NCBI GenBank assembly: GCA_046050355.1
Contig: JBJOPW010000001.1
Span: 67,858-131,857, forward strand
Source of the DNA: Candidatus Parcubacteria bacterium
GTDB taxonomy: Bacteria; Patescibacteriota; Minisyncoccia; Phycocordibacterales; UBA918
Direction: 5' to 3'
DNA length: 64,000 nucleotides
Program-made: the position numbers and the translations under genes
The notes under the pieces: generated by a model
The model's database searches: none
What the model saw: the letters and a program-made list of their open reading frames with translations, nothing else
Told to the model about the DNA's origin: nothing
Shown: in pieces, positions 1,183-58,242 of the stretch
How the letters are laid out: every line of letters starts with the position of its first letter
How positions within the stretch are numbered: the first letter of the stretch is position 1

Positions 1183-1704
1183 TTCGAAAAGTGTTGTATA
1201 ATACTGTGAGTGTATGGCGATAAGAAAGTTTTCATTCGCACCTGACGAAATATTCCATTGCTATAACCGTGGGGTTGATAAACGAGCAGTTTTTGAAGAT
1301 AAGCAGGACTACGGGTATTTTTTAAAGTTGTTGCGATATTTTAATACATCGGCAGTGAGAGGTAATTTAAGGTCAGTAGAAAATAAAGAGCCTATAAATC
1401 CTCCAGTAACTATACTTGCCTACTGTCTTCTTCCAAACCATTATCATCTTTTAGTACGCTGTAATGATGTTGAGGGAGGTTTGTCAAAATACATGCAGCG
1501 TGTTGCAGGCGGATATACGATGTATTTTAATCAAAAGAATAGTCGATCGGGTTCTCTATTTCAGGGTAAGTTTAAGGCAAATCACGTTGATACCGATAGT
1601 TATTTACGGAACATCTTAGCGTATGTTGGGTTTAATTTTATTGTTCATGATATAAATGAAAAAAGTCTGTATCGAGCGAGCATCAATTATAAAGACGAGT
1701 TAGT

Positions 1705-1723
1705 ACGAGGTCTTGCCTCGTCC
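1705..1723. repeat. REP-like palindrome copy (ACGAGGTCTTGCCTCGTCC) inside the 3' part of the RAYT ORF
   Basis: Same core as 1160..1182, seen directly. Confidence 0.5.
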
Positions 1724-1774
1724 TTTTCAGAAGAACAAATGCTCGAAGTTATTGAAATAATAAAAGAAATGAGA

Positions 1775-1797
1775 AAGACGAGGCAAGACCTCGTCTT
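1775..1797. repeat. REP-like palindrome copy, inverted orientation (AAGACGAGGCAAGACCTCGTCTT), inside the 3' end of the RAYT ORF
   Basis: Perfect 9-bp stem with the loop in reverse-complement orientation relative to the 1160 copy. Confidence 0.5.
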
Positions 1798-1841
1798 TGA
1801 GCATGAGAAGGTGGCTGGTGTGAAGAGTGTGGAGGATATTT

Positions 1842-18037: not shown

Positions 18038-18793
18038 TCAAGACTTCGATCGAAAATAATTAGCGAGAAGGATTGAAAAGTCTTTGAAGGTCATAGCCCC
18101 ATCATTATTAAAATCGTAGCGGTTGTTCTGCTTTACCCATTCCGCCATAAATATACTGATATCGTCAAGTGAGACTTTTCCATCAGCATTCACATCGCTG
18201 ACAAGGAGAACCACTGCTCCGGCTTCAAGTGTCCCATCCGTACTTTCGGCAATTTTAAGTCTTAACTGACTCTCTTCCCCGATTTTTGCGTTAATTTCGG
18301 TCCCCTTGCCATCACCTGCCAGTAGGTTGGCTTCGGTGGTTGAAAACACAATTTCCCCAGTAGCACGAGCTTTGGCTCTTATGGTGGCGATAAGGTGTTT
18401 ACCTACAAACCCTTTGCGGTATGTCCCACCTTCGAGTAAAACCGCTCCATTTTCAACTCGCGGCTCACTTGTCCAAAGCGTAATTACTGACTCACCGCGG
18501 TCAATACCAAGTACTTCAATTTTGTCTTCAGGATACGCAATGCTCAGTGAGACAGCATTGACCGGTGTGTTTGCAACTGCATAGACAGCGATAAAGAATG
18601 TCTCATCTGGAGCACTTTGTGATTGTTTGGTTTCAAGTATAATTGATGATTTTGAAGAACCAACTACTGAAGCGAAACTTGCTACGACCATGAGAGCGAA
18701 CAACCACGAAAACAGGTAGCGTACCGTTGTGGTTGATGTGCGGCTTCGCCGAGCGTGTATATAGGCTACAACTAGCTGCCATAGTTTGATCAT
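18038..18793 (-). CDS. Membrane-anchored protein with a cohesin-like module and a C-terminal dockerin (two Ca-binding repeats)
   Basis: N-terminal TM. Middle domain (ITLWTSEPRVENGAVLLEGG) is homologous to the LWTTEPTYSNSAGTI.F.GG module of 19478, 21195 and 56211. C-terminus DVNADGKVSLDDISIFMAEW and DFNNDGAMTFKDFSILLANY fits the dockerin DxNxDGxVxxxD tandem pattern. Confidence 0.65.
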   Translation of the reverse strand: MIKLWQLVVAYIHARRSRTSTTTVRYLFSWLFALMVVASFASVVGSSKSSIILETKQSQSAPDETFFIAVYAVANTPVNAVSLSIAYPEDKIEVLGIDRGESVITLWTSEPRVENGAVLLEGGTYRKGFVGKHLIATIRAKARATGEIVFSTTEANLLAGDGKGTEINAKIGEESQLRLKIAESTDGTLEAGAVVLLVSDVNADGKVSLDDISIFMAEWVKQNNRYDFNNDGAMTFKDFSILLANYFRSKS

Positions 18794-19467
18794 AGTGATT
18801 GCAGTTCGCGTCTGGTTGTTTCAATTTGCTGCATGCGCACCGTCATATTGTTCTTGAGATCAGTGACGGACTTGAGCGTATTCATAATCTCTTCAGAGTC
18901 ACGACTCTTCCCTGCCAAAAGGGCTAAAATAATATCACCCTGCAACTCAACGAGTTGCGTGAAGTCCGCTGCCATAGTAAGTTCATCTTCAGCGATTCGT
19001 TGCCAAAGCGCTACACGATTTGTCTTCTCGTCTTCAGTTTCAAGAATGCGTGAGCGGAGCGTAATGTATTCATCATACACAGTCACTTCTCGTGCTAGTC
19101 GAGCTGCCATCACTGACTTTTTGTCGGCAAAATACCGACCACAGGCAAAAAACAGTCGGTCAAGCTCACTCAGTTCTGGCTTCGAAATTGAGGCAGATAA
19201 TTTGTCGAGTAGCACCTCAAAACGTTGACGTTCTGTTGGCTGACAGTCGACCACAATACGTTCGGTAATTTCATCAGCTTCATTGCGTTTGGTGAGGTCA
19301 GCTATCGTAGCCAAAACCAGTTCTTGTTCAGCTATATTTGCTTTAAGCGCTAGACTAGTTGAATCAAGTTTTTCACGAACAACTCTATTTGTGTAGATAG
19401 AAATTACCCACAAAAGGAGCCCGATACCAATAGCGAGTAGAGCTAGCTGGCGAGATGTTACATGCAT
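18790..19467 (-). CDS. Hypothetical membrane protein with a coiled-coil region
   Basis: N-terminal TM (LALLAIGIGLLLWVISIY), then helical or charged sequence. 4-nt ATGA overlap with the downstream gene. Confidence 0.45.
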   Translation of the reverse strand: MHVTSRQLALLAIGIGLLLWVISIYTNRVVREKLDSTSLALKANIAEQELVLATIADLTKRNEADEITERIVVDCQPTERQRFEVLLDKLSASISKPELSELDRLFFACGRYFADKKSVMAARLAREVTVYDEYITLRSRILETEDEKTNRVALWQRIAEDELTMAADFTQLVELQGDIILALLAGKSRDSEEIMNTLKSVTDLKNNMTVRMQQIETTRRELQSL

Positions 19468-19477
19468 ACAGTAAGAA

Positions 19478-21226
19478 TTAGCGAGTTAAGGTGGTTACGT
19501 CTGATACTTCTTTTTGTACAATTTGCTCTGCTGATTTTAACACGGTTCTTATATCTGTAATAAGGGCACCTTCGGTCGCTGTCAATTTACCGGTTTTGCG
19601 GCTACGAACAATATCCGCTTCGTGTGCATGCAGCAGTTCTTCAATAACAATAAATTGGGCATGAAGCGCAGTACCAACTTCACTACTTTCACGGTTAAGG
19701 AGTACCCGGAAGCGGCGATACCGTGCCAAGAAGTAAAAACTGCCGAGGGTAGCCAGTACGAGCAGGGCAATCAGTGGAATAATGACCGAGAGCACATCAA
19801 TCAAGAATGAACCGATTCGTACGAGACCCATAGGTTGTACAACAAATTGGACGGGGTCAGAAATACCACTTTGCGCACCAAACTCATCATGTGCAGCAGC
19901 CGTGAGGGCATAGACGCCTTCAGTGAGAGCGCTGTTCGGGATAAAACGAAACGTACCTGTTTCGTCACTCTTTACCTCGTAGATAGCTGGCTCTTGTCCA
20001 GTCTTCGTGAGGGTTACGGCGACTGTAGCATTTGGTCTTGTGGTACCAAGGAATACTGGGATGACACCGGTACTGATCTCGGTTGGCACATCGCTAAAGC
20101 GTGGTGCTTCAAATGATTCAATCTCGAACGTAAAGGTTGAGACCGTGCTGTTGCCGGCGGCATCAACCACTTCTACCACCATTGTTTGGCGACCGGGAGT
20201 CAATTTCTCGAGTTTTATTTCATTTTTACCTTCTTCATTTTTGTACTCAACTGGTGCAGCGCCATTGAGTTGTACCCTAAAGACTTTAATTGGTGAGCCA
20301 TTGGTATCAGTAGTTGATGCTACGACAATTTGTGTCGGATTCGCCAGATTGCTATCGGGTTTGAGGCTCAACACCACATTTTGGGGAGCGTTAGTATCAA
20401 CCCCGAGACGATAGTGCGCTACCTTGCCCCACCCCTCGGCATTTTTGAATTGGATATGGAAATACGATACCCCTTCATCGAGATCAGCAAGGGTAATCTC
20501 TTTGATAGGACTATCATAGACTTTGGTTGGTATGGCAGTCGGAGATTCATCAAGTGCGGTTCGTACAGCGACTACATCTCCCGGTAGTGTCCAGCGGAGA
20601 ATAGCGGTCTTGTCTTTTGACCAGCCGGCTGGGTCGCCATGGGTATCGGAGGTTATCTTTGGAGCCGCTGGTGTATTGGCTGGTGGTACGTATTCAACAA
20701 TGGTTTCGGGGGCTGGGGTCTCAGTGGCAGCAGAGATGGTATACGCACCACTCCCCATACTCGAGAGCACATTGGTCCCGCGACCATCAGCCGCTAGAAC
20801 AGAGCCACTACCAAAGGTGACACGCGCTGCTCCAGATCCCAGGGTGCGGAAGGTGATGTTCATCACTGTTCCTGACCCACCAGTGTAGCCGGTCGGCGTA
20901 CCACCGCTAAAGTTAATCGTACCAGCACTATTAGAGTAGGTTGGTTCGGTGGTCCAGAGATTAAAGATTGAACTACTGCGGGAAACCGACACTACCTGAA
21001 GCGCTTTATTATCAAAATTAATCGTGCCATCAGCGGCATTAATGGCAGCTCCTTTAGTATCAACCGCCACGCGCACAGTAAAGGTACTGCCGCTGCCATA
21101 GACACCAGTAGCTGGTGACATATTGAGAGTGGCCGCTAGAGCGAATGAACTAGAACCAAAGAGCGCAAGTAGTATAAGGAGACGACTAAACATATTAGTT
21201 AATTTCAGTGACCTCAGCCTCGGCAC
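19478..21226 (-). CDS. Type-I membrane surface protein: signal peptide, cohesin-like module, Ig-like domains, TM, cytoplasmic coiled-coil tail
   Basis: Signal peptide, then the module TFTVRVAVDTKGAAINAADGTINFDNKALQVVSVSRSSSIFNLWTTEPTYSNSAGTINFSGGTPTGYTGGSG. TM segment IPLIALLVLATLGSFYFL. Paralog of 56211..57755, with near-identical LWTTEPTYSNSAGTI(N/T)F(S/G)GG. Confidence 0.65.
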   Translation of the reverse strand: MPRLRSLKLTNMFSRLLILLALFGSSSFALAATLNMSPATGVYGSGSTFTVRVAVDTKGAAINAADGTINFDNKALQVVSVSRSSSIFNLWTTEPTYSNSAGTINFSGGTPTGYTGGSGTVMNITFRTLGSGAARVTFGSGSVLAADGRGTNVLSSMGSGAYTISAATETPAPETIVEYVPPANTPAAPKITSDTHGDPAGWSKDKTAILRWTLPGDVVAVRTALDESPTAIPTKVYDSPIKEITLADLDEGVSYFHIQFKNAEGWGKVAHYRLGVDTNAPQNVVLSLKPDSNLANPTQIVVASTTDTNGSPIKVFRVQLNGAAPVEYKNEEGKNEIKLEKLTPGRQTMVVEVVDAAGNSTVSTFTFEIESFEAPRFSDVPTEISTGVIPVFLGTTRPNATVAVTLTKTGQEPAIYEVKSDETGTFRFIPNSALTEGVYALTAAAHDEFGAQSGISDPVQFVVQPMGLVRIGSFLIDVLSVIIPLIALLVLATLGSFYFLARYRRFRVLLNRESSEVGTALHAQFIVIEELLHAHEADIVRSRKTGKLTATEGALITDIRTVLKSAEQIVQKEVSDVTTLTR

Positions 21227-22328
21227 TCACCGCGGAAGCCTGCTTTTGGCGGCGGCGTCGACGCCAATACCAGACTCCAGCGAAACTGAAGAGGACAAGC
21301 GCTACTCCAGTGGCTGCAGCCACTGCCAGCGTTATTGGTGAAAAGCGACTGATATGAGCGTTTTGTGGGGCCAAAGTAGCAATGTATTCATTCCCCGCTT
21401 TATCAACGGCGCGCACGCGGATAGTACTCTTGAGTGACTGATCAGTGAGCACATATGGACTGCGTCCTTCCGTCCACACTGTTGTGGCCGCACCAAAGGT
21501 AAAGAGTCTCGTGTCCTCAACCGGTTCTTCGATTACTTCATAGTGACTCATGCCACTTTGTTTGTCGGTAGTGTTAAAGACAATATAGTACTTCTTTTCA
21601 AAAGCATAGTCGTCTTTCTCGAGGGTAATAGAAAATTCTTCGGGCGGGATATCATCATCTGCAACAACATCTCGCCACTCATCGATAATAGTAGACCCAA
21701 CAACTTGATTGAGCGTCAATTCTGCCCCGAGTGTTTGGAGCGCTGCTTCAGTCCCAAAACCATCATTCAAAAAGGCGCGTGTTTCTGGATTAAATGTCAC
21801 CGTTCCAAAGGGAGCGACCTCCCCACCACCAACGGTGAGACCGGGAGCACGAAATACAATCTGGAGTAGTGTATTAGTGAGTCTCGGATCACCATCAACA
21901 CGCCCACAATAGCCATTTGGAATACCGCCAGCAAATGAGATGGTGCGTGCATTTTTGTCAATCACTGGCTGTTCCACCCAAATTGGAAATATTGACTGGC
22001 CAATTGAAATATCAACCGGATTTATAGCCTCGTTGTAACTAATCACCCCATCAATAGCATTAATACATTCATCTTCAGCTTCGTTCGTATCTAGTCGCAC
22101 TGAGAGTGTCACTGAATCACCACGATTAAGTGTTGGTCGCGGCGGGTCAAGGTACAAGGTGGCTGCTGACACGGAATCAGCCACCAAAAACATACACAAA
22201 AAGAGAACGAGTCGGTAGACCATACTTGTAGTATACAGAATAGAATCATACAAAAACGGCTTTTTACACAAACAAAAACTCCCCGTGGTGGGGGAAGTTT
22301 TTGTTGTATTACTCCAAGCTTGGACCAA
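21195..22328 (-). CDS. Membrane-anchored surface protein with a cohesin-like module (divergent paralog)
   Basis: Signal peptide. Module ...INAIDGVISYNEAINPVDISIGQSIFPIWVEQPV...ISFAGGIPNGYCG aligns with 19478/56211. C-terminal TM and an Arg-rich tail (WYWRRRRRQ). Confidence 0.55.
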   Translation of the reverse strand: MVQAWSNTTKTSPTTGSFCLCKKPFLYDSILYTTSMVYRLVLFLCMFLVADSVSAATLYLDPPRPTLNRGDSVTLSVRLDTNEAEDECINAIDGVISYNEAINPVDISIGQSIFPIWVEQPVIDKNARTISFAGGIPNGYCGRVDGDPRLTNTLLQIVFRAPGLTVGGGEVAPFGTVTFNPETRAFLNDGFGTEAALQTLGAELTLNQVVGSTIIDEWRDVVADDDIPPEEFSITLEKDDYAFEKKYYIVFNTTDKQSGMSHYEVIEEPVEDTRLFTFGAATTVWTEGRSPYVLTDQSLKSTIRVRAVDKAGNEYIATLAPQNAHISRFSPITLAVAAATGVALVLFSFAGVWYWRRRRRQKQASAVSAEAEVTEIN

Positions 22329-22334
22329 TATTCT

Positions 22335-23543
22335 TTAGAACACTGGGGTTGCTACGTATGTCAGCGTAGCGTTGTAGTCGTTCCCCGCTTCCTGGAGCGG
22401 AGAAATTTCAACCTTGTAACCAACGCGGGTACGACCAATATTTGGTGTAACTCCGTCTGATGGTCCATTGTGTCGAAATACTTCAACCGGTGTGGTCGAG
22501 GCAGAAACAAAGCGCTGCCCGGTTCCTCCGGCATCAAATGGATCGGTGAGACCAGCGGTGAGTGAGGCGTCTTCTGTGGTTAGACCCCAGTGACCCCACG
22601 TATTCTCATTACTGATTGTCCCGGTTGGTGGATCCCACGCCACTGGCGTGTTAGTGTACGCACCATCAATAAATCCATCGATATCAGCACCCGTTGAAGA
22701 GAGCAACTGCTGATCAACTTCTACTGTTACCGCAAAGCCGTAACTCGCATTTGTTGACACAGACAATTGCTGAGCTGATGTCGTGGCTGAACCCTGTGTC
22801 AAAACTCCAAATGGAATTGAGGTAGCAGAGGTCGAGCCAGTAATTGCTTCTTGGTTAACGGTACCGGTAGCGACACCACTTACCGTAAAGGTAAAGCTCG
22901 TGTCAACAGCGGCTGTAACCACGACTGGTGAAATGATCGCTACTCGAGTAGACCCACTATCTACTGAACCAGCAGTGATGTCAATCTCGTATGAGCCGAC
23001 AGCAGGGTTGGTCAATTGAGCGTTACCAGTGGCACCAAAGGTGGCATTGGTTCCGATCTGAATAGTGGTAGTGCCATTAGCCGGTAATGAGGCACCATCG
23101 CCGGGACAGAACTGGAGCGTAATGGTGTTGGTAGTTGTTGAAAAACCAACTTCATCAGATCCTCCACATCCGTTCCCAACAGACAAATCTGTTCCATCAT
23201 CAGTGATATCTACATCGTCAAACGCGACTGCTCCAAGAGCGAAAGGCCCGTTAGAGAAATTGAGGACAATAGATTCACCGTTTGCTACGCCAGTAGGTGT
23301 AACAAAACTGATGGTGTGATTTGATGGCACACTCGGGGCTGAATCCGAGAGCGTATCACTTACTAATCTGACATTTGCGGCCTCCGCAAAGCGGAATGTT
23401 GGTAGACCCAATGACCATAACAAAATGGCAAGTCCAACAACAGAAGCCAGTGCTTGGAGTAGTCCGAACGTTGAATTCGTTCTACTCATGACTCTACGTT
23501 GTATTAGCCAGGCGCTGCTGCGAGAGCAAAAGCAATGCAGCAA
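22335..23543 (-). CDS. Secreted Thr/Ser-rich beta-rich surface protein
   Basis: N-terminal TM or signal. Low-complexity T/S/G-rich. The C-terminal beta-strand ...ATLTYVATPVF resembles the C-termini of the two giant proteins (...TEIVYIAVPVY, ...GINVFTPVSP). Confidence 0.55.
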   Translation of the reverse strand: MLHCFCSRSSAWLIQRRVMSRTNSTFGLLQALASVVGLAILLWSLGLPTFRFAEAANVRLVSDTLSDSAPSVPSNHTISFVTPTGVANGESIVLNFSNGPFALGAVAFDDVDITDDGTDLSVGNGCGGSDEVGFSTTTNTITLQFCPGDGASLPANGTTTIQIGTNATFGATGNAQLTNPAVGSYEIDITAGSVDSGSTRVAIISPVVVTAAVDTSFTFTVSGVATGTVNQEAITGSTSATSIPFGVLTQGSATTSAQQLSVSTNASYGFAVTVEVDQQLLSSTGADIDGFIDGAYTNTPVAWDPPTGTISNENTWGHWGLTTEDASLTAGLTDPFDAGGTGQRFVSASTTPVEVFRHNGPSDGVTPNIGRTRVGYKVEISPLQEAGNDYNATLTYVATPVF

Positions 23544-23825
23544 CGTGACTCGCGACCGTCATCGTTCACAGTGTGGTCTCCACCCCACTTCTGTATAGAC
23601 GAGCGACAGGCATACTAATGCTGTAACAGTGGCTGTTCTGTCCTAGCATTCCATTGTGGTGGGAGCTAGCAGTATCATTAAATAGATACCTCCAAACATT
23701 AGTACTCATTCATTGTAGCTTGCGCGTGTCAGCAAAAGAGAAACTTATACACAAAAAACAATCTCAAGTTTACCAACTATACAGACGATGTTAGAAATTT
23801 TTATACAAAATGATATAGTATATCA

Positions 23826-24419
23826 ATGCCAGATTTGGATTCACTCCTTGAGTTTACACGCCTGATGTCAAAGCTTTCAACTACTGAGCGTTTTGTTAAC
23901 AAAATCGGTACTAATACGCGTGAGAATTTCTCAGAACACTGCACACAACTTGCTTTTACTGCTTGGTACCTGATTGAAAAACATAAAATGTCGCTGGCTA
24001 TAGAGAAAGTTCTACAATACGCTCTCATACACGACATTGTGGAAACGTATACCGGCGACTTTCCCACCCATTTACCTAACTGTGACCGACAGGAAAAAGA
24101 ACGCCGAGAACGTGAAGCCTTTGCATGTATCAAACAAGATTTTCCCGACGCTACAAGTTTATGGTTACAATACGCGCAATATGAACAAAAGATCGATGCC
24201 GAAAGTAAGTTCGTTTACGCACTCGATAAACTACTACCAGGACTTAACATTTATTTAGACTCAGGCAAAGCCTGGGCTGAGAGGGATCCGGAGAATAACA
24301 CTTGGAGTTTCGATGATCTATCAAAACGGGTAGCACACGATCAGTTAGTTTCTCAGCTATGGGAAGAAATTCGGACTCGAATCTATACAGAACATCCAGA
24401 GTTTTTCTCCCAGCCGTAA
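23826..24419 (+). CDS. HD-domain phosphohydrolase (YfbR-like 5'-deoxynucleotidase family)
   Basis: 197 aa. HD motif region H...LAFTAWYL, then YALIHDIVETYTGDFPT. One of only two plus-strand genes. Confidence 0.7.
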   Translation: MPDLDSLLEFTRLMSKLSTTERFVNKIGTNTRENFSEHCTQLAFTAWYLIEKHKMSLAIEKVLQYALIHDIVETYTGDFPTHLPNCDRQEKERREREAFACIKQDFPDATSLWLQYAQYEQKIDAESKFVYALDKLLPGLNIYLDSGKAWAERDPENNTWSFDDLSKRVAHDQLVSQLWEEIRTRIYTEHPEFFSQP

Positions 24420-24497
24420 AAAAATGTAACATATACTGTCGTCAGTAAAGAGTTCGCCAAATGACCCTAGATTCGAGGCGTGCGAGGAAATTGTTGT

Positions 24498-24520
24498 GAG
24501 CCGTACTGGCTGTACGGTGA
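24498..24520 (-). terminator. Conserved 3'-UTR stem-loop downstream of the dockerin gene 24571..25677 (GAGCCGTAC-TGGCT-GTACGGTGA)
   Basis: 6-bp stem CCGTAC/GTACGG. A homologous hairpin at 58588..58609 downstream of the paralogous dockerin gene carries compensatory changes (CCGTAT/ATACGG). Confidence 0.4.
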
Positions 24521-24570
24521 ACTGCAATTTACCGAAGCACAACAAAGAAGATAGGGTTAGTTGGTGGACT

Positions 24571-25677
24571 CTACCCGGTCCAGTTGAAGAGGAGGATTGA
24601 GAAGTCTTCAAGTCCAACCTTCCCATTACTATTGATATCCGCCGGCGGGTTTGAGTCACCGCCATTAGTACTCCACCAGAAAATGAGAATAGAAAAGTCG
24701 GTTAGATTAACCTTACCATCACGACTGAGGTCAGATGGCGAGCTGGGTGCGCCATCGACGCCTAAAAGCAGCTGCACGACACTACTATAACCACTTTGGG
24801 TCAGTAGTGGTGGTGTGCCAGTAATAGAGCGAACTTTGATTGGATAGGTGGCATTACGGAGACTCGCCGTATTGAGCGTATAGCTGTAACGACCACTAGT
24901 GTCACTGGTCGTTCGTTCGGTGCGAAGACTACTGTTCCCTACCTGGATTTCGATCGCAGCACTCGGGACTGCCTGTCCAGAAATCGTAACTGTTCCGCCA
25001 GGACTGACTTTAGTATTTGATAAGGCTAAGGTCGGCGGCAACAAAAGGCCACTGACATTTGTTACGGCGCCTTGAGTCACATCAAAGGTACTATTGAGCG
25101 TGATAGAGCGTACCCCCGTCGAGTCATTCGCCCACACACCCATGGTAGCGGTTCCTGGCGACGCTTTGGTCGAAAATTCAAAACGACCGGTACTATTAGC
25201 TCGTACGGAACCGACAGACTTGGTATCAAGAAGAAAATTAACTTGCTGATTTGGATACGCAATACCAGTAATACTGATTGACGAATCACCAAGATCGCGG
25301 GTACCACCGCCACCTCCTCCACCGCCAGATGATCCACCGCCGCCAGAACCAGCCGGTTCTATTTGACAGGTAGCCGAACAAAAATCACCACCGGTGTTAT
25401 TCGCATCGTCACACTCTTCTGCATAAGTAGTCTGCAAAATACCATCACCGCAGTATGGTCCATAGTCACAGACAGCATTGCATTGTCGCCCAGCAATGGT
25501 GGTACTGTAGAGACCAATTTCACCAGGCACATCGCACTGTTCCCCGACATCGATGAGTGCGTTCCCGCAGATACTCAAATCAATAGTGGTTGTTGCTGTT
25601 GAAATAGTGACAGCGAGTACTTCGTGTGGCATAACACCAAGCGAAGCGACGAAGAGGAGGAGAGCAGCAAGGCGCAT
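24571..25677 (-). CDS. Secreted protein: Myxococcus-type cysteine-rich repeats, Gly-rich linker, Ig-like domains, C-terminal dockerin
   Basis: Signal peptide MRLAALLLFVASLGVMPHEVLA. CGNALIDVGEQCD...CGDGILQTTYAEECDDANNTGGDFCSATCQIE fits the CGDG...EECDDGN...GDGCS..C repeat. GSGGGGSSGGGGGGGG linker. C-terminus DLSRDGKVNLTDFSILIFWW...DINSNGKVGLEDFSILLFNW is a tandem dockerin. Confidence 0.75.
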   Translation of the reverse strand: MRLAALLLFVASLGVMPHEVLAVTISTATTTIDLSICGNALIDVGEQCDVPGEIGLYSTTIAGRQCNAVCDYGPYCGDGILQTTYAEECDDANNTGGDFCSATCQIEPAGSGGGGSSGGGGGGGGTRDLGDSSISITGIAYPNQQVNFLLDTKSVGSVRANSTGRFEFSTKASPGTATMGVWANDSTGVRSITLNSTFDVTQGAVTNVSGLLLPPTLALSNTKVSPGGTVTISGQAVPSAAIEIQVGNSSLRTERTTSDTSGRYSYTLNTASLRNATYPIKVRSITGTPPLLTQSGYSSVVQLLLGVDGAPSSPSDLSRDGKVNLTDFSILIFWWSTNGGDSNPPADINSNGKVGLEDFSILLFNWTG

Positions 25678-25682
25678 AACAA

Positions 25683-26729
25683 CTACGTTAAACGAGAACG
25701 ACGGTTATGAATAAAGAATAAGATGACAATAAGTACTGCGAAGATTGGCAGCAGGATCGATAGCTTGTGTGCTATTGATAGTCCCATAAAGCCGTAACCA
25801 GCGACCTGTAGCGTGCCATATGGCAATATACTCAAGTTGAGTTCACCCTCTTGTTTGACATCCTCGCCATTTTTAATGGTATACCGCGCGATATAGCTAC
25901 CAGCCGGTAACCGGGTCGGGAGTGAGGCACTAATTTCTTCTATCGCGTAGGGAGCGATTTTTTTGAGACGACCCGTATGGTGGGTTTCCTCGAGTAATAC
26001 GGCGCCAGCGCGATCATAAATACGAAACTCAACATCTGACGGAGCAACATCAATGTTACCGGTGTTCTCAATCAACATCGAAAAATTAATCTTGCCAGGG
26101 AAATACAACCAACCAACTTTCTTTCCTTCATTGAGATCACTGACAGTAATCTTACGGACGCGGAAATCTTCGATGACTTTATCAATGACTGATAGATCGA
26201 CATCAACTTGAGCACCCAGAGAAATGCTTACGACACCCTCAGCGACCTGATCATCAGCTGGCAGCGTACGGATACGAATCTTGCCGGTATAGTCTGCAAA
26301 ATCTGCCTCAGCTGGAACCTTGATACGTACTGTCATGGGCACTTTTTGTTGTCCACGTGGCAAGGCGATACTTTGACCTTCAACAATCTCTATCCAATCC
26401 TGAATCTCTGGTGCGTCAATTGTAATTTCGGCTTTGAGATTGTCACTTGGGTTACCACGAACCAGGAGAATCTGCTGTTCGTAGGTTGAGTTGCGTGTCA
26501 GGCTGGTGTTCCGAACATACGGCGGGGTAATACCAAAACTAGCGTAACTTAAGGCTGGCCAAAAAGCCAAAGTTGCGAGCACACACAAAACAAAAGAACG
26601 AAGCAAAAACGTTGGCAAAATTACCTTCATGCGATACTCACTATTATCGAAAATATTAGCCAAAAAAGCAATAACCACTGTTCGGATAACAGTGGTTATT
26701 GCTTGTTGTATAGAGTGATGGTTTACCAA
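25683..26729 (-). CDS. Hypothetical surface protein with a signal peptide and a C-terminal TM anchor
   Basis: N-terminal hydrophobic segment, a beta-rich ectodomain, C-terminal TM LSILLPIFAVLIVILFFI followed by HNRRSRLT. Confidence 0.5.
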   Translation of the reverse strand: MVNHHSIQQAITTVIRTVVIAFLANIFDNSEYRMKVILPTFLLRSFVLCVLATLAFWPALSYASFGITPPYVRNTSLTRNSTYEQQILLVRGNPSDNLKAEITIDAPEIQDWIEIVEGQSIALPRGQQKVPMTVRIKVPAEADFADYTGKIRIRTLPADDQVAEGVVSISLGAQVDVDLSVIDKVIEDFRVRKITVSDLNEGKKVGWLYFPGKINFSMLIENTGNIDVAPSDVEFRIYDRAGAVLLEETHHTGRLKKIAPYAIEEISASLPTRLPAGSYIARYTIKNGEDVKQEGELNLSILPYGTLQVAGYGFMGLSIAHKLSILLPIFAVLIVILFFIHNRRSRLT

Positions 26730-29231: not shown

Positions 29232-30461
29232 CTATTCATAGCGAATCGCATCCAGTGGATTTAGAGACGAAGCCCGACGGGCTGGGAAGATTCCAGTCAA
29301 GTACCCCACCGCCGCTGAGAAGAGAGCAATAAATACGAGGAAGCCAATCGGGAAAGAAAAGAGCTTCACTGCCTGCCCGCCAAATTGCCCCGCCACAATA
29401 TTCAAAAAGACATTGATGGTCACCCCTAAACCTACCCCCATCACGATGCCACTAATACCGCCAAGGAAGCCTACTACCACCGACTCTGACACGAAGAGGT
29501 ACTTCACATCATTTGGTGAGGCCCCAATCGTACGCATAATACCGATCTCTTTGGTACGCTCAAGGAGGGTCACCGTCATGGTATTGAACATACCAATGGC
29601 TGACACTACTAGCGCAATACCACCGAAGGTAGCAAGTACGATCTGAATTCCTTGAAAGATTTTGGAAGCTTGCTCCACGGTCTTTGAGAGTGCTGTCACC
29701 CGGTAGCCAGCGTCGATAAGTTTATTTTCTACAATCGGTAAATTCTCGTTGGTATCAACGCGTACTTGAATCCGTTCAAATTCTTCAATACCGACATAGT
29801 TGCGTAGTTCAGGCAACATCATCATCGCATTAAGGACACCTTCCTCTTTGGTAATGCCACGAACAGTGTATTCCTTATCAATAATGACTTCAGTGTTGTT
29901 GTTAGTCCCATCATTAGCCGGAATCAAAATACGAAATGATACTTTTTCACCAACAAAGGTGGCTGGATCATCAACTCCAAACAGCTTTAGTACGGCTGGC
30001 GAAAGCATCACAGAATTCGTATCACCAGCGTCAGCATCGGTAAAGACAGTGCCTTCAGTGGCCGATACGCCGGCATACCGCAGATAAGGTGGCTCCACAC
30101 CTTGAATAAAGACGTTCCCGGTGAGACCTTTGTAGGTGACGAGAGCCGGAAAGCGAGCGAGCGGAGCGGCGTCGAGTACCTCAGGCATATTTTCAAAATC
30201 AGCCACGGTCTCGGTGGTCAATTTTAGGTTTTGCGCACCAGTAGCTGAGACACCGAGCGACAAAAGGGTCTCACCAAACACGATCTGTTCTAGAATGATT
30301 TGCTGCAAACCAAACCCAAGACCAACGAGAATCACCACGGCCCCTGTCCCCACACCCATACCCAAAATCGTGAGCCACGTACGAAGCGGGTTGGTTTTGA
30401 ACATACGCGTCGAAAGCTGCGCCAGATCCTGAACTCGCATAGTACTTACATTATGACACAA
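29232..30461 (-). CDS. ABC transporter permease, MacB/FtsX family (N-terminal TM, large periplasmic domain, C-terminal FtsX 3-TM bundle)
   Basis: 409 aa. TM1 LRTWLTILGMGVGTGAVVILVGLGFGL, a ~230-aa periplasmic core, then a C-terminal FtsX-like region (IALVVSAIGMFNTMTVTLLERTKEIGIMRTIGASPNDV...). Confidence 0.8.
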   Translation of the reverse strand: MCHNVSTMRVQDLAQLSTRMFKTNPLRTWLTILGMGVGTGAVVILVGLGFGLQQIILEQIVFGETLLSLGVSATGAQNLKLTTETVADFENMPEVLDAAPLARFPALVTYKGLTGNVFIQGVEPPYLRYAGVSATEGTVFTDADAGDTNSVMLSPAVLKLFGVDDPATFVGEKVSFRILIPANDGTNNNTEVIIDKEYTVRGITKEEGVLNAMMMLPELRNYVGIEEFERIQVRVDTNENLPIVENKLIDAGYRVTALSKTVEQASKIFQGIQIVLATFGGIALVVSAIGMFNTMTVTLLERTKEIGIMRTIGASPNDVKYLFVSESVVVGFLGGISGIVMGVGLGVTINVFLNIVAGQFGGQAVKLFSFPIGFLVFIALFSAAVGYLTGIFPARRASSLNPLDAIRYE

Positions 30462-30577: not shown

Positions 30578-31900
30578 CTAACTTTTGTAACTAACATCTA
30601 CCCCTTGTGCAATCAACTTTTCAAAGTAACGAGTCATGTCATCAGCCTCCTTCTCAGACAAAGAGAGACCTTTGCTCCGGATCCCTTCCATTAATCGTGT
30701 ATTAAAGTCTTTCTCTTCGACGACACCAGTCACTCGGTCCGCCACTAGTTCAACGAGGTTAGCATCTTGCTCTTTACTAAGCTTCATACGGTATACCTCT
30801 TGGAGGTGATCACGGAGTCGCTCAGCGAGTTTATGTTGACTAAAGAAAACACCGGCATTGTCCTTCTTGGCACGAAAACGGCGAATATCATCTGATTGTT
30901 CAATCAATTTTTCACTCCGTTTGGCCATATCTTTGGCTACCGACTCTGGCACCTCCACTCCCCCGCGTTCTAATGGCAATACAAGTGCATTTATAAAGGC
31001 GTCGCGATCAATTTTGCCTTTAATGAAGAAACCAACCGCACGTTCAAGTCGTTGGATTTGGTCAAAGGTGTAGTCTTGTGTGAGGTAGTTTACAAGACTT
31101 TTTACCCGCAGAGTTTCTACCGAATCATACGGGAAGAGTCGTGCCAGCTGCTCGAGTTCAGTCACAATCGTCTCCCCTTCACGTACTGGCTTAATCTGTT
31201 TACGTTGCGGGTTGACCACTTCGCGCACAATAAAGCCATCTTTGAGATAGTACACCCGGTGCGCATACGAAAGATGCGCAGCGTTGTGTGACACCATAAT
31301 AATGGTACGACGGTCAAAGGTGTTAATTTCGTCAATTTTATCCATTACTTGCTGAGTCGAAATCGAGTCAAGGTTACCGGTTGGTTCGTCCGCCAGAAGA
31401 ATCTTTGGATCATTCACCATACTCCGAGCTACTGATACACGCTGTTGCTGTCCACCGGAGAGCATCGAGGGGATTTTGTGTGACACATGCCCTACCCCAA
31501 AACGATCGAGGAGCGATTGGGCTCGTCGATCACGGGTCTGTTTGTCGGCATTACAAAAAATCATTGGTAGAGCTACATTATCAAGCACCGACAGCGACCC
31601 AATGAGGTTAAACGACTGGAAGATAATACCCATCACGTAGCGCTGGAAGTACACACGTTCTGAAGGTGGATAGGAATAGATATCATCCCCTCGAATAAGG
31701 AGTGTTCCGTCTCCTGGTGGCAAAGAACCCTGAATTGAATACATGAGTGTCGACTTCCCTGACCCTGAGGCCCCGAAGAGAATGATGTACTCACCTTCAT
31801 AGATGTCCGTGTTCACATTTTGGAGCGCACGAAATTCGTTACTCTTGCCTTTATTATAAATAATCGACAAGTCACGACAAACAATCAGAGGCTTCGCCAT
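30578..31900 (-). CDS. ABC transporter ATP-binding protein (MacB/FtsE/LolD-like) with a ~200-aa C-terminal extension
   Basis: Walker [10 protein letters not shown], signature [14 protein letters not shown], Walker [14 protein letters not shown]-loop MVSHN. Residues ~230-440 are a charged helical extension with no recognisable domain. Confidence 0.85.
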
Positions 31901-33750: not shown

Positions 33751-36700
33751 TTATGGTGAGACTGGCGTAAAGACGTTGATACCAGAGTGAGGCGCACTGT
33801 TCACCCCAAACGGTACCTCAATTCCCCAGAAGATGTCCGTGGTTACTGGTGGCGTTGGTACGGTCGGTTTACTGAGATTAACATCAAGTGCTACTGGAGT
33901 TGAACTTGAGAGGAGTGAGCAGACGGCACAGCCACTGTAGGTGAACGTACTCGTAGCAAATTTTTGTTTATTGGCTGGAATCACTGATGAGGCGCCATCA
34001 CTGAGATCAGTTCCCTCTACTTCGATATCAAATGGTACGTTACCAGCATTTGCAATAGTCGTTGTTGCATTATAAGAACCGGTATCAGCTTGAGGGGCCA
34101 AAGAACCGTAGTTAATACCAGAATTTATACTCAGTGATCTTACCGTAAGTAGTTCAACGGCCAAGCTATCAGCAAAATCATATCCGCCACTATTATCAAT
34201 CACTTCAGTGAAGGCGAACCACTCAGCTGCGCCATCATCTGAAGGAGTTGCAAAGAATTGTATATCAGCATAACAAATTAAGTTACAGTTGTTGCCTGTG
34301 CACTGCAGATTACATTGATTACTGGTATCAACACGGTAACAATTGTTGTCATCAGGTGTACATGATGAGGTACCGGACGCGGTTTTGTAGAAGGTAGTCG
34401 TAGCCATTTTAATATCACTCGCACCGTTAAAGTCGGTAATGGTTGTCGTGGCGTAAATGCGGGTGGTTGTTCCTGGTAGCAATGCAATGTCAAACCCGTC
34501 ATTGAGGTTGACTGTGCCAATCACCGGATCAAATTGGAGACCAAGTTCAGCCACTTTAGCGTAGTAGTCGATTGGAGTTGAACCGTTTACCACGCGGAAA
34601 CAGTAGTTATCAGAAGCATTGTTAGTCGGAGTAATCACATACTCAAGTTCGGTGTAACGATCTTGATTAACTGATAAACCACTAGTCATAGTAGACGGAC
34701 TTTCAACAACCGCACCAGCACTAAACTGACCATTACTGGTAGTAAGCAAGTCGGTAGTCGCTTCACCGTCGGTAACGTTGCTGGATACCTGCATACAAAC
34801 GGGTGACGATCCGCACGATGCCTGATTTGGTACGGCTGCAAAGCTACCACTACTGACCGCTTCACAACTCGGAGCACCACCCTTGGCGGCATACTGGAGC
34901 CGGTAGGTCTGTCCTGTCACATCGAGACCAGAATTCTCTATGCCGATACGTAGACGACGAGTGACATTTGGCAAGCCACTACCTAAAGTATTCTCCGCAG
35001 CGACCCACGATGCACCACCGGCAGTTTGTTTGGCACCAAAGGAAATACCGGGATTAATCGGACCTCGTCCGCTCACCTGGTAGCTATCCCAGGCGCCATT
35101 TTGTACCCAGAAGGTAAAGCCCATACCACCACTGGTATACGAACTATCGGTAGCGGTAGTCGACGCTACAATCGAGCCAGCAGCATTATAGAGGTACACA
35201 TCAATACGATTGCTGGTTTGCCAATCAATTTCGACCAGATACCAACCAGTAGCAAAGGTGACCGTGGTAGACGCCAAGCGGGTACCGGAAACATCGTTAT
35301 CAGTTACATTCTTCGACAGTGAGAGGCGGTCTGTTCCAAACAGTTCAAGACACACTGCGTAGTTATTATTATTGGTGCCGGGAGTTTGTACACCAAATAG
35401 TGCACAACCTTCATCGGCTGATCCCGTTGTAGTATCGACGTATTGGCGATATCGAATAACTTGACCCTGCGCTGTTAGACTGCCGGTACGGAAGATACCA
35501 TCAGTGGTTCGACCTGACTTATTTAAGGCTTCAAGCGCATAGCTACCACCAAAGACTGGCGCGGTATCGGTCTGGAATAATGTCGTATCGCCACTGTACT
35601 CAGTAATATTGTTATCTTCAAAGTCGTCACTAAAGCTGAAAGTGGCAGCCGCTGAACTTGAACTGGTTGAACTTGCATTTCCAAAGTACGCAAAGACATC
35701 AGTATATGCATTTGCCGCTAGACTCGGCACCTCTACCCACACCACGGCTTCAGTACTCGCCGTGTAACGATCAAGCCAGAAATCAAGTGGCGTCACCCCG
35801 TCAATACGGGTAAAGCGAAGATCATCAAAGTCAGATTGCATCGCACTATCGTACGGTACGACAATCTTAACCGTGGTGGTCGAGAAAGTGGTAGCGGTAA
35901 TGTTTTCGATGCGGACTCGCTGCCGATTACTCCATGACAAGTTATACCACTCACTATTTGGCGCTCCTTCTCCCCCATCATCAGCACGCCAACGGTAGCT
36001 GGTCTGTGAAGTCAAAAGACAACCACTATCGTCAAAGCGTATTGAACCACATGCGTCAACACCGTCACTGTCAAACGCTTCTCCACCGATGTTGCCGTAG
36101 CTACCACTAAAGCGCCACGCATTACTGGTACTACCGACCAGTGCTGTATTGGTACCATTCCAACTATTTCCAGCATTAAAGCCAACGGCGGTAAATATCT
36201 TTGACGCATTGGCATTAAGCGCTGTGTCAGCCAATGTGATGAGGGTACCACCGTTAAGCGCTAGATTGTAGTAACCGTTACTCAAATTGGTGATAGTAGG
36301 CGTATTGATGAAATTAAGACCGGTGCTATTGAGGGCGTTAAAGCGATAGTACTGGGCATTAAAGGTACCACCAGTGACAATAAACGCGTGGGTGCCGGTA
36401 CTGATGTTACCAATGGTAGTCGAGGCACTTAGTCCACCAATGATACTAAGAGTACCGCTCTGGACAGTGGTAGTTGCATTTTCATTGATCCGAACGGTTA
36501 CTGCTCGCTCAGTGCCAGTAAGTGCAGTACCATCAAAATCGGTAGCGTACGACCAGTATTCACTCGTGGTGGCAACGGTGAAGTCTCCATAAATATTGAG
36601 GGCTCCGTCAACTACGCCATGGTCTTGTGAGTAGAGTGAGGCCCCCGCACCGGTAGTGGTGGTAGCCACCGAACTATTCCACAGGCGTAGATCAGCGACA

Positions 36701-39700
36701 TTGATTGACAAGGTGGCATAATCGTCACCACCAGTGGTTTTAGTATTGATAGTGTATGGCGCACTGTTGGTGAGACTGATAATGGTATTAGTCCAGGTCG
36801 TTGCACCACCACCAACAAGATTAGTGAACACACCACCAATACTAAGCGAAGTACCAGCTTCTTTGGTAAATGCTGATGCGGTGGTGAGGGTAAGGTTATT
36901 TGTTGTCGTGGCATTACCTTGCCAGGTCCATCCACCGGAAGCACTGGCAAACTGGACATTGTAGAACGGACTGGTACTTGCATTGATGGTCTTGCCACTG
37001 GCTGTCGCATTGAAGAGGACGGTTCCAGAAGCATGACTGAAGGTACCGCCAGTCACGAGGAATGAGCCACCAACAGAGAGTGTATTTGTCGCTGCCACGA
37101 GGGATCCAGATGCTATGACTACATCATCACGGAAGGTCGCTGAGGCATCAGTGATATTGATGGTACCAACATCAGTCTTGCGGAGCGCAAAGAGATCAGA
37201 ACCACGGGTGGTGATTGAGGCGGCACTGGCACTCGTCATATAGAGGTCAGCAGTGTTATGAGTGACAGTACCACTCGCATTAGTGAATGAACCACCGACA
37301 GCGAGGGCGCCACTTGGCAGCGTGACAGTACCAGTGTTACTGATAATAAAGCTACCGGTAGTCGTAGCATTGGTATCAGTCATACTCCAGGCACCGCCAG
37401 CACCCGTGAAGTACAAGGCTGGCACCATCGCGTCATCAAAGCGGACAATATTACCAGTTGAAGAACTGACAAAGGCAATACCGGTACCTGGCATCGAGAA
37501 GCTACCACCCGTCGCATTAAACGAAGCACCAATAGTGGTCGTACCACTACCAAAGGTTACCGTACCAGCGCTTTGAGTGTAAGAACGAGTAGTAGTCAGC
37601 GCACTATCGGCTACTGTCCAAGAACCACTACCAGTGATATAGAGGTTGTAGAATGCCCCACTATTGACGTCAATCGTACGACCAGCACCCGTAGTGGTGA
37701 GTGTGGTTGTTGATTGACCAGCGGTAAAGACAGCTCCAGCACCAAAGATGATACTGCCAGCAATACTGTGTGTCTCATTGCCCTGTGCGCGCCAAGTGGC
37801 ATTCGCAAGAGCCTCAAGCGTGCCGTCTTGCGCACCGCCACCACCGCCACCACTAAGGGTGACATTACCATTTGGTTCAAAGGTCTTACTTGTCCAGATA
37901 AGGAGCTTCTGGTCAGCTGGCAAGCTGAGCGTATCGCTGCCAGCATCAACCGCCGTGAAGAGAATATCACCATCATCACTACTATCCCAAACCGCCATGT
38001 CGGCAATTGAAAGTGGGCTAGTGTTTTCGTGGCGGACAATCACCCGATTTTCGTACAAGTGCATGTCACTAATCGATGAGATTGGATCAGCACTGACGGT
38101 TACTGCCTTGCGGATGTTGTTGTCGATATACACCGTCAACGTATCAGCCGGACTAAAGGCTACGTTTGGAATACTATATGCTCCGGTAGTGGCATTACAT
38201 GGTGTTGAGTAGGTCGTAAGCCCTGCAACGCGGAGCACAATGTTGGCGGTGACGCCGTTACAAACTGGCGAGACCGTCACCCCTTCGTCACTGTAGACAT
38301 TACCCGATACCGTGATAAGCGCAGCTGAGTCATCCCAGACGATGTACCCAGGATCACCAGCCGGATCATTGTCATATACTTCCCCATCAATTGAGCCGGT
38401 GTGGTTCGTAAAGCGCCACGAACTAACCGCCGTTCCGGTCGCGGTCACGTTGGTAGCAGCACTCACACCAGTTGAAGTGGCGAAATGGTTGTTAGTTAAG
38501 TTCTTCGCCGGGTTGTTATTAAGGACAGTACTACCAATGGTAACGCCTGTACCACCAGTAGCCCCAACTTCGATATCCACTCGTGAGAAATCGGTGACGA
38601 TTGGTGTGCCGGTAAAGATGATACCACTGGTGCTAGCGTTGCGCACCGTTGCATAGTTCCAGTTAGCAGTGCCACTACCACCAATTATCACACCATAAGT
38701 GCCCGCGCCTTGATTGGTGATTGAGGTGGATGCTCCAGCAGCCCCAATTACCGAGAGACTACCACCAGTGAGATTATAGGCTGCACCTGAAGCAAAGGCT
38801 ACGGTCACGACACGTTCACTACCACTAAGAGCGGTGCCATCAAAGTCAGTGGCGTAACTCCAGTAATCAGACGCGCTTGTTTCGGCAAACGTGCCGTAGA
38901 CGTGGAGAAGACCATTGGTGTTGTTGTGATCTTGTGAGTAGATACCACCGAGCGCATTGTAGGTAGTAGCGCTACTATTCCAGAGACGGATACGAGTATC
39001 ACTGGCCACTCCGAGTGTACTGTATGTATCGGCAGTAGTTTTTTGGTTCACTGCTATGCTGCTACCACCATAGAAGTAGAGCGTGCCCGGGAAATCAGTG
39101 GCTGCGCCACCCAGTTGATTATCAAAGGTACCCGCGAGTGCCAGTGTCGTACCCGTCGCGACTCTAAAGAGTGCGTGGTTCTGGAGAGTAAAGCTCACGG
39201 TAGAGGTCGCTGATTCAGATACGGTAAATGAACCAGTGCCATTAATACGGGTGCGAGCGAGCGGTGAAGTACCCATCGCAATGGTATGAGTTCCACTACC
39301 AGTGAAAGCAGCTATGCCACCGTTTGCTAGTACCGTCCCGTTATTATCGATACTACCGGCAATAGTGGTGGTCGCCGTATCACTGAGACTCAAGGTCGAA
39401 GCTGAAGCTACAAACACGTCGCCACTTACCGTAAGTACTGGGTCTGACTGATTGGTGGTGAAGGTTGAAGAAGCAGTACCGTTACCGATAGTGAGATTAC
39501 GGTTAACGAGGATACCAACACCACTGGTCGTGAAGGTAGAACTACCAACGCTGGCTCCGACAGCTAAGTCGTAGTAGGTCGTACCGAGCACAGTTGCGTT
39601 CGCACCACTATAGGTAACGAGCCCAGTGCCTGGTCGATACGTTCCAGACACCGAGAAGACGGTACCGCTACCCGTGAGATTAATTGGCGAAGAGCCAACA

Positions 39701-57780: not shown

Positions 57781-58242
57781 CTATTTTGGCCTGGTCTTAT
57801 CGGCAGTGATTTTGAGCTTGACTCGCTCTTTCTCCTCCGGCTTTAAGAGTGGCAGTATTAAAATGAGTACACCGTTTTTTATCTTTGCCTCGGCCTTTTC
57901 AATATCAACACTCTCAGGCAAGATTATCCGTCGATAAAAATCACCCCAGACACATTCTTCAGTAAAATACGAACCACGCGGTTTACTTTTAGGAAAGACA
58001 ATAAATTCCGGTCGAATGCGGCGACCTTCGATGAGGACGATATCGGCATCCCCTTCAATCGAGACGTGGACATCATTCATATCAGCACCAGCTGACTGCG
58101 CATAGATGACAATCGTCCGTTCCGTCTGATAGACATCAACATCAAGCTGCGCCACTTTGTCGACAGCAGTCTCTTCCTCACTAGACTGCAGAGTCTGGTC
58201 AGAACGAACACCTCTCCCTTTGAGACGTTGTAAAAATGACAT
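57781..58242 (-). CDS. Hsp20/alpha-crystallin family small heat-shock protein
   Basis: 153 aa. Alpha-crystallin domain DVDVYQTERTIVIYAQSAGADMNDVHVSIEGD...LPESVDIEKAEAKIKNGVLILILP. Confidence 0.8.
   Translation of the reverse strand: MSFLQRLKGRGVRSDQTLQSSEEETAVDKVAQLDVDVYQTERTIVIYAQSAGADMNDVHVSIEGDADIVLIEGRRIRPEFIVFPKSKPRGSYFTEECVWGDFYRRIILPESVDIEKAEAKIKNGVLILILPLLKPEEKERVKLKITADKTRPK

Follow-up and report, generated by a model that had tools for sequence, protein, structure and literature searches.

How Paceibacteria hold very large surface proteins or fibres on the cell is the question raised by the locus described here, since bacteria belonging to the candidate phyla radiation (CPR, or Patescibacteria) are believed to live in attachment to host cells, within an envelope that is poor in wall material and has no outer membrane. 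The stretch analysed (the window) is a 64-kb part of a metagenome-assembled genome (MAG) of Candidatus Parcubacteria, taken together with its six-frame translation, and its proteins are named below by the first coordinate of their open reading frame (ORF; Table 1). Four of these proteins carry a cohesin-like module and three end in tandem dockerin repeats, one of them (18038) having both. As far as can be read from the sequence, it is rather probable that calcium-dependent binding between the two kinds of module tethers components of a surface fibre or adhesin to the membrane, in a system that would be non-cellulosomal.

Dockerin repeats at three C-termini

The loop pattern D.[NDS].[DN]G.[IVLM]...[DE], run on the six-frame translation of the window, gives six matches, two each at the C-termini of 18038, 24571 and 58657 and none elsewhere, and the six loops on which the original prediction of three dockerin proteins was built were found exactly as it had written them. 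Hidden Markov models (HMMs) of the module families detect the same three dockerins (E ~1e-26 to 1e-28) and no further ones in the 64 kb. All six 12-residue loops keep D, N or S at calcium positions 1, 3 and 5 (Ser occurs once, at position 3) and D at position 12. In the structural model of 18038 discussed below the loops are followed by helices (aa 209-221 and 236-250), i.e. by the tandem EF-hand-like loop-and-helix arrangement of a type I dockerin. The repeats, whose calcium-ligand positions are intact, also score as dockerins with PF00404 (Dockerin_1, gathering threshold 22.9 bits), with 32.5 bits for 58657 (above the threshold), and 22.8 bits for 18038 and 22.4 bits for 24571 (both just below it); 18038 also scores 26.8 bits with the NCBIfam model dockerin_GC.

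The dockerins of 24571 and 58657 are 85 % identical, compared with 33 % for the flanking Ig region, while that of 18038 (type B) is just 43-45 % identical to the other two. In 58657 the halves of the dockerin are near-symmetric (DLNRDGKVNLTDFSILLF / DISQDGKVNLTDFSILLF), as expected of the dual-binding-mode dockerins of cellulosomal type-I systems. No segment of the 24571 family is better conserved than the dockerin (82-97 % versus a mean of 61 % for the protein), and the C-terminus itself, DFSILLFNWTG, is nearly invariant. When 1.84 billion representative proteins were searched with a 58-aa dockerin query, 208 of them matched at E <= 1e-10. Among the best 150 of these 208, the high-identity, single-copy matches stop at the C-terminus of the protein (+/- 1-2 residues) with few exceptions, and the lengths of the carriers cluster near 300-470 and 550-650 aa, which corresponds to the two carrier families present here.

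Evidence for a cohesin fold

It had also been claimed that 18038, 19478, 21195 and 56211 share one beta-rich module, called the LWTTEP module. The homology stood, all four modules being mutually related by hhalign (probability 98.6-100 %, E 7e-16 to 4e-52), whereas the literal motif SIF.LWTTEPTYSNSAGTI.F.GG did not extend to all four: it occurs only in 19478 and 56211, whose modules are 51 % identical, and 18038 and 21195 have divergent versions that are 23-36 % identical to those two. With PF00963 (Cohesin, gathering threshold 24.1 bits) the modules of 19478 (35.7 bits, E 1.2e-8) and 56211 (41.7 bits, E 1.6e-10) both score above the threshold, and those of 21195 and 18038 are joined to them by hhalign at 98.6-99.9 % (for 21195 against 19478, 99.9 % and E 1e-31; against the HMM of its own family, E 3e-42). 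Some members of the 18038 family have precomputed matches to both PF00963 and PF00404. Four cohesin-like modules were detected in the 64 kb with the module-family HMMs (E 1e-40 to 3e-52), and no fifth one anywhere in it.

A single module was modelled with AlphaFold2, in 18038 (chosen as the most divergent carrier) and from an alignment of 59 sequences. The model has a mean predicted local distance difference test (pLDDT) of 84, with values of 88-96 over most of the beta-module, and a predicted TM-score (pTM) of 0.59, and it fits the nine-stranded flattened beta-sandwich (jelly-roll) of a cohesin. When it was compared with the PDB by Foldseek, the top ~36 matches were all cohesins, with TM(target) values of 0.53-0.82 and 4dh2_A as the best. 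The non-cellulosomal cohesins of C. perfringens (2jh2, 2vo8) match with a TM-score of 0.80-0.82 and that of A. fulgidus (2xdh) with 0.77. Identity to solved cohesins is just 8-19 %, and a profile search of the PDB with the 18038 family gave weak and mixed matches (EF-hand 4e-4, dockerin 2y3n_B 2e-3, cohesin 5lxv_A 2e-2). Profile and structure searches (Pfam, hhalign, Foldseek) thus led to cohesin rather than to an unrelated fold, and the identification of the LWTTEP module as a cohesin is supported. Because existing sources already name some of these proteins 'Cohesin domain', the domain annotation itself is not new.

In solved type-I complexes the dockerin is bound by the 8-3-6-5 sheet of the cohesin. 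The residues that are invariant among the cohesins (in 18038 numbering N79, S102, T105, W107, P111, G122, G123, G160-G162 and G164; T108 and A159 are near-invariant) map onto strands 3, 5, 6 and 8 of the 18038 model, and the conserved 8-3-6-5 sheet would, on this model, be the dockerin-binding face.

Placement of the modules at the membrane

The proposed division into membrane-anchored cohesin-like proteins and secreted dockerin-bearing proteins was borne out by three transmembrane cohesin carriers (19478, 21195 and 56211) and two secreted dockerin carriers (24571 and 58657), the latter having signal peptides and no second transmembrane segment. In each of the three cohesin carriers an Arg/Lys-rich segment directly follows the single transmembrane helix, and since this is combined with a signal peptide, their N-terminal cohesins are expected to face outward and to be membrane-distal. 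For 18038, with its basic N-terminus and one hydrophobic helix, the cohesin and the dockerin are for that reason likewise placed outside, whether anchored or released. Signal peptides, transmembrane helices and positive-inside tails together therefore predict that cohesins and dockerins lie on the same (outer) side.

The original prediction had gone further, in seating the shared module on type-I proteins with a C-terminal transmembrane helix as well as a cytoplasmic tail. This is correct for 19478, 21195 and 56211 but not for 18038, in which the hydrophobic segment is an N-terminal anchor or signal, and long tails are found only in 19478 (~90 aa) and 56211 (81 aa), that of 21195 having just 27 aa. 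The double architecture of 18038 (i.e. cohesin plus dockerin) was confirmed, with a linker between the modules (aa 188-196) that is of low confidence and flexible in the model.

Conservation within 56211 is highest in the tail: over residues 451-510 the identity among 118 homologues is 93-95 %, compared with 53-85 % elsewhere, which suggests a conserved cytoplasmic partner. No match to the tail was found in the PDB or among protein families. In 19478, by contrast, the paralogous tail shows no special conservation.

Conservation of the locus

The genes form two paralogous sub-clusters within a block of ~55 kb, each part of which is syntenic in other Paceibacteria-type MAGs. A scan of a genome collection with 19478 gave 34 loci, and about 30 of the 34, in Paceibacteria-type MAGs, keep the whole block of the first sub-cluster down to ~45 % identity. 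The order in this block is fn3 protein, ABC ATPase, MacB/FtsX permease, 26723, 25683, the dockerin protein 24571 and 22335, followed by the cohesin proteins 21195 and 19478, 18790, the cohesin-dockerin protein 18038, 16390, the 2053-aa protein and 9181. Even in loci that are just 27-36 % identical, the dockerin gene still adjoins two cohesin genes. The second sub-cluster (ABC exporter, dockerin protein 58657, Hsp20, cohesin protein 56211 and a giant of ~7,000 aa with DUF2341/LamG) keeps its order in two further long contigs, L001 and L002.

Database homologues extend this picture. For 56211 there are at least 974, of which the best 120 are 63-100 % identical and, as far as their sources were named, come from Parcubacteria, Patescibacteria or Pacebacteria; the protein is 100 % identical to one of a Candidatus Parcubacteria MAG. 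The cohesin-plus-dockerin architecture of 18038 recurs in at least 200 homologues. Between the paralogous sub-clusters the cohesins are 51 % identical, compared with 31 % for the rest of the ectodomain, and the cohesin is among the best-conserved parts of 19478 (34 orthologues). Conservation is higher in the cohesin and dockerin modules than in the remainder of the proteins that carry them.

Two loci labelled as uncultured Saccharibacteria (L005 and L006) match this Parcubacteria locus with 62-89 % identity along the entire block, for which reason the Saccharibacteria label is doubtful. Labels are also doubtful for L019, L020, L023, L028, L030, L032 and L033 (Saccharibacteria) and for L034 (Gammaproteobacteria). 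In the literature on cohesins or dockerins in CPR, Parcubacteria or Patescibacteria, no description of this system was found.

Nature of the dockerin cargo

No glycoside hydrolase, esterase, lyase or carbohydrate-binding module (CBM) is recognisable in any protein of the window, the giants of 7456 and 2053 aa included, in agreement with the earlier claim that the system has no cellulolytic context. The dockerin carriers instead consist of Ig-like, Cys-rich and pilin-like modules, from which we infer that the dockerin cargo is structural and non-enzymatic; enzyme display is unlikely.

The pilin-like part is connected to two other proteins of the locus. The first ~295 residues of 22335 recur at the N-terminus of 58657 (aa 1-336; hhalign 97.5 %), where the last ~100 residues of the C-terminal domain of 22335 are missing, and the 22335 unit also forms the end of the 2053-aa protein 10174 (aa 1658-2053; hhalign 99 %). 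The match of 22335 to NCBIfam NF058581 (CPR_Pam_pilin_C, cut-off 55 bits) covers just 37 residues and reaches 23.9 bits (E 3.5e-5), and 14 of 19 orthologues match the same model, the best with E 1.3e-7. Sequence searches of the PDB with the families of 22335 and 25683 gave nothing useful. The occurrence of a small unit on its own (22335) and of a large protein with the same unit at its end (10174) has a logic like that of WxL clusters.

A proposed calcium-dependent tether and its alternatives

The pattern as such is far from chance, because the six loops, and the four cohesins and three dockerins, are confined to these proteins in 64 kb. In the proposed mechanism, the proteins would be exported by Sec, after which calcium-loaded dockerins would plug into the 8-3-6-5 sheet of the cohesins and so hold the secreted proteins at the cytoplasmic membrane, on its outer side, with 18038 as a possible adaptor or second tier. 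The most likely role would be that of a basal anchor for a strand-complemented fibre or adhesin assembly on the surface, since 58657 has a truncated pilin-like start and 10174 ends in a pilin-like unit, and since the locus also encodes three WxLIP/PapD-like proteins and a MacB-type ABC system. A more specific and rather doubtful version is that the cohesin-dockerin pair was recruited in Paceibacteria to serve at the membrane as anchor or terminator for a strand-complemented fibre that is related to Pam pili. As its base subunit, 58657 would then plug its dockerin into the transmembrane cohesin protein 56211, and the fibre would bear 2,000-residue adhesins, and perhaps also the giant of 7,500 residues, reaching the host cell. 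The tail of 56211 (~94 % conserved) could link such a fibre with a partner in the cytoplasm, so that force or a signal is transmitted, and the MacB-type ABC system could power its assembly.

Several observations weigh against a tether. Two of the three dockerins (18038 and 24571) remain less than 0.5 bit under the Pfam threshold, and the modules of 21195 and 18038 have no direct match to Pfam Cohesin. The near-invariant extreme C-terminus could have another function, e.g. as a signal for sorting or processing. Outside cellulosomes, dockerin-like modules that lack a cohesin partner are said to be common, as reportedly described by Peer et al. in 2009, a study cited in PMC10066038. The link to Pam pili is weak (23.9 versus 55 bits), 22335 being at best a distant relative, and neither cohesin nor dockerin was found in the giant proteins with the module HMMs over the 64 kb. 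Because the giants carry neither module, they would not be tethered directly, and as direct dockerin or cohesin cargo they were ruled out.

Some of these points could also mean that the folds are genuine but that the modules do not pair with each other. The cohesins would then bind a glycan of the host cell, peptidoglycan or another protein of the locus, the dockerin ends would be calcium-stabilised C-terminal modules or sorting tags, and their co-occurrence would reflect operon membership only. The unusual constancy of the C-terminus, for a simple dockerin, would fit such a tag, as would the treatment of some dockerins by NCBIfam as C-terminal anchoring domains (dockerin_GC); orphan dockerins are reportedly widespread, the A2 profile of 18038 scores EF-hand proteins of the PDB slightly above dockerins, and binding between the modules here is a prediction. 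Yet both partner families occur together and adjacent over deep divergence, each paralogous sub-cluster keeps one of each, and within the proteins both kinds of module are under the strongest constraint. The nearest structural matches, moreover, are solved non-cellulosomal relatives, among which the A. fulgidus pair is a working calcium-dependent cohesin-dockerin pair that has been applied in surface display (PMC12484212). On balance, non-pairing is considered unlikely, though worth keeping in mind.

A further alternative concerns 18038, which might bind itself head-to-tail and form a homopolymeric chain or sheet on the membrane, instead of or besides acting as an adaptor. The conserved double architecture and the flexible linker would allow this, and A. 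fulgidus is known to have one protein with both modules as well. Nothing points to self-affinity, however, the type B dockerin with its low identity to the others could equally target 21195 or 19478, and a pTM of 0.59 gives no support for a defined arrangement between the modules, which makes self-polymerisation improbable. A miniature cellulosome displaying polysaccharide-degrading enzymes is very improbable indeed. Cohesin and dockerin are its defining modules, and in L001 a GH18 (glycoside hydrolase) gene lies ~10 kb from the second sub-cluster, but the organism is a small-genome Parcubacteria bacterium, the cohesins come singly per protein, and the dockerin carriers have only the structural modules named above. 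As the window holds no tandem-cohesin scaffoldin and no carbohydrate-active enzyme (glycoside hydrolase, carbohydrate esterase or polysaccharide lyase) or CBM, the cellulosome reading was rejected. Chance resemblance or a low-complexity artefact, for which the shortness of the dockerin loops and the two marginal Pfam scores could be cited, has next to no probability and is refuted by the restriction of the six loops to three C-termini, by families of hundreds to thousands of members and by the confirmed fold.

Comparison with known systems

The closest parallels to the proposed tether are the pairs of A. fulgidus (2xdh) and C. perfringens (2jh2, 2vo8, 2w1n), which, like the putative pairs here, consist of single modules outside a plant-cell-wall context. 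The present cohesins differ from them in being carried by type-I membrane proteins that have a tail in the cytoplasm. The putative cargo consists of pilin-like, Ig-like or Cys-rich proteins instead of a glycosidase or toxin, and the genes form a syntenic block that is conserved over a CPR class beside giant proteins. With cellulosomal type-I systems (C. thermocellum 1ohz, OlpC 4dh2) the locus shares the cohesin fold and the duplicated 12-residue calcium loop plus helix. In contrast to those systems, it has no tandem-cohesin scaffoldin, CBM, SLH or sortase anchoring, or enzymes, and transmembrane helices serve as anchors.

A second comparison is with Pam pili, which are donor-strand-exchange filaments of Ca. 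Mycosynbacter with membrane-anchored PapD-like chaperones (PamC/D), an fn3-type transmembrane anchor (PamR) whose anchoring role is proposed, and a CBS-type magnesium transporter, CorB, conserved beside the pam operon (Troman et al. 2026, bioRxiv 10.64898/2026.03.03.709456). They are reported there in Saccharimonadia and Microgenomatia, with no mention of cohesin, dockerin or Paceibacteria (bioRxiv 10.64898/2026.03.03.709456). The present locus is likewise a CPR-specific envelope locus, with the weak match of 22335 to the Pam pilin C-domain and with two-domain, membrane-anchored PapD-like proteins that resemble PamC/D, i.e. PapD/FimC-like chaperones with a C-terminal transmembrane helix. Its fn3-containing, transmembrane-anchored class could fill the anchoring role of PamR, so that anchoring by 56211 and its cohesin would, by analogy, correspond to what has been proposed for PamR. 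A neighbouring gene for a magnesium transporter with CBS domains recalls corB, which may be coincidence or a common link through magnesium or ATP sensing. Beyond this, the present locus has cohesin-dockerin modules, giants of 2-7.5 thousand residues and a MacB-type ABC system.

The WxL/WxLIP clusters of Firmicutes (Hassan et al. 2023, PMC10599100; PDB 9i1y, 9i25) belong to a different phylum and have no cohesin-dockerin. Neither a WxL domain nor a WxL motif pair was found in the locus, which is thus not a WxL cluster. Relative to the known pairs, then, the system differs in its single transmembrane-anchored cohesins with tails, its structural cargo, its class-wide synteny near giants and its Pam- and WxLIP-like neighbours.

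Gene layout and neighbouring genes

All ORFs named in the original prediction were recovered on the minus strand with unchanged coordinates, and the co-directional, operon-like packing it described was found for the genes from ~3.3 kb to 64 kb. Translation of 19478, 21195 and 25683 probably begins at internal Met codons, since the alignment with homologues starts only at these positions. A single plus-strand gene lies within the minus-strand block, with the dockerin gene and the pilin-like gene on either side; it encodes an HD-domain protein (YfbR-like 5'-deoxynucleotidase), has no homologue among 36 related loci and looks like a lineage-specific insertion.

Table 1. Features of the 64-kb window discussed in the text (nt, nucleotides; TM, transmembrane)
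Position	Strand	Length (aa)	Description	Modules and segments
18038..18793	-	251	N-terminal hydrophobic anchor or signal, cohesin, linker, dockerin	anchor or signal aa 27-45; cohesin aa ~48-185 (nt 18239-18652); dockerin aa 199-247 (nt 18053-18199)
19478..21226	-	582	type-I membrane protein: signal peptide, cohesin, fn3/Ig-like (Big_13 E 2.3e-13), TM, basic and helix-prone tail	cohesin aa 31-169 (nt 20720-21136); TM helix aa 474-492 (nt 19751-19807)
21195..22328	-	377 (ORF)	type-I membrane protein, probable start Met36: signal peptide, divergent cohesin, Ig-like domain, TM, Arg-rich basic tail	cohesin aa 57-211 (nt 21696-22160); TM helix aa 332-350
56211..57755	-	514	type-I membrane protein: signal peptide, cohesin, fn3/Ig-like domains, TM, tail	cohesin aa 33-170 (nt 57246-57659); TM helix aa 415-433; cytoplasmic tail aa 434-514 (nt 56214-56456)
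24571..25677	-	368	secreted: signal peptide, Cys-rich acidic repeats (DUF4215/TIGR02232), Gly-rich linker, two Ig-like domains, dockerin; Pfam Big_7	dockerin aa 315-368 (nt 24574-24735)
58657..60627	-	656	secreted: signal/anchor, pilin-like unit at the N-terminus (~300 aa), Gly/Ser linker, two Ig-like domains, dockerin; Pfam Big_6, Big_13	dockerin aa 603-656 (nt 58660-58821)
22335..23543	-	402	secreted; distant relative of CPR Pam pilin C-terminal domain	
25683..26729	-		membrane-anchored, WxLIP/PapD-like: two beta-sandwich domains, C-terminal TM	probable start Met34 (nt 26630)
9181-10167			membrane-anchored, WxLIP/PapD-like; paralogue of 25683	
7566-9275			membrane-anchored, WxLIP/PapD-like; paralogue of 25683	
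18790..19467	-	225	N-terminal TM helix, helical domain	
33751..56121	-	7456	giant: three DUF2341, Ig_Rha78A_N, long Gly-rich stretches; directly downstream of 56211	
10174-16335	-	2053	giant	
26723-28600		625	C-terminus similar to that of the 7456-aa giant	
29232..30461	-		MacB/FtsX-type permease (Pfam MacB_PCD, FtsX)	
30578..31900	-		ABC ATPase (Pfam ABC_tran)	~200-aa helical C-terminal extension without family match
57781..58242	-		Hsp20/alpha-crystallin (Pfam HSP20), no signal peptide	
16390-17916		508	conserved; N-terminal TM, Pro/Thr/Glu-rich low-complexity region, TolB-like beta-propeller (sub-threshold NCBIfam)	
23826-24419	+		HD-domain (YfbR-like 5'-deoxynucleotidase)	
1214-1849	+		IS200/Y1-transposase-like ORF at the window edge, strand opposite to surface-protein block	
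62427-63419			MgtE-family divalent-cation transporter with CBS domains; directly upstream of second sub-cluster, here and in L001	

Among the neighbours, conservation within the block is highest for the genes of the MacB/FtsX permease and the ABC ATPase (70-96 % identity across loci), and this pair may possibly assemble or energise the surface system. Over its last ~250 aa the giant of 7456 aa is similar to the C-terminal end of 26723, a protein of 625 aa (blastp E 4e-12), and it has internal repeats in common with the 2053-aa protein. The gene of 18790, a protein for which no significant family match was found, has the cohesin gene on one side and the cohesin-dockerin gene on the other in almost every related locus, and 16390 sits between the cohesin-dockerin gene and that of the 2053-aa protein. 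In the second sub-cluster the Hsp20 gene lies between the dockerin and cohesin genes in three of three genomes (79-88 % identity in L001 and L002); lacking a signal peptide, Hsp20 is odd company among surface-protein genes.

Implications for Paceibacteria

The locus amounts to a concrete proposal for how Paceibacteria hold huge surface proteins or fibres. The proposed parts are transmembrane cohesin sockets, structural cargo that bears calcium-dependent dockerin plugs and perhaps an adaptor tier, encoded near genes for giant adhesin-like proteins. Cohesin-dockerin biology would thereby be taken past enzyme display and tied to the Pam pilus and to systems of the WxL/WxLIP type. The small size of the modules (~140 aa and 55 aa) makes their binding testable without culturing the organism. 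If the cohesin-dockerin pair does anchor a fibre in the way tentatively suggested above, it would represent a new mode of anchoring a surface fibre in a bacterial cell that lacks an outer membrane.

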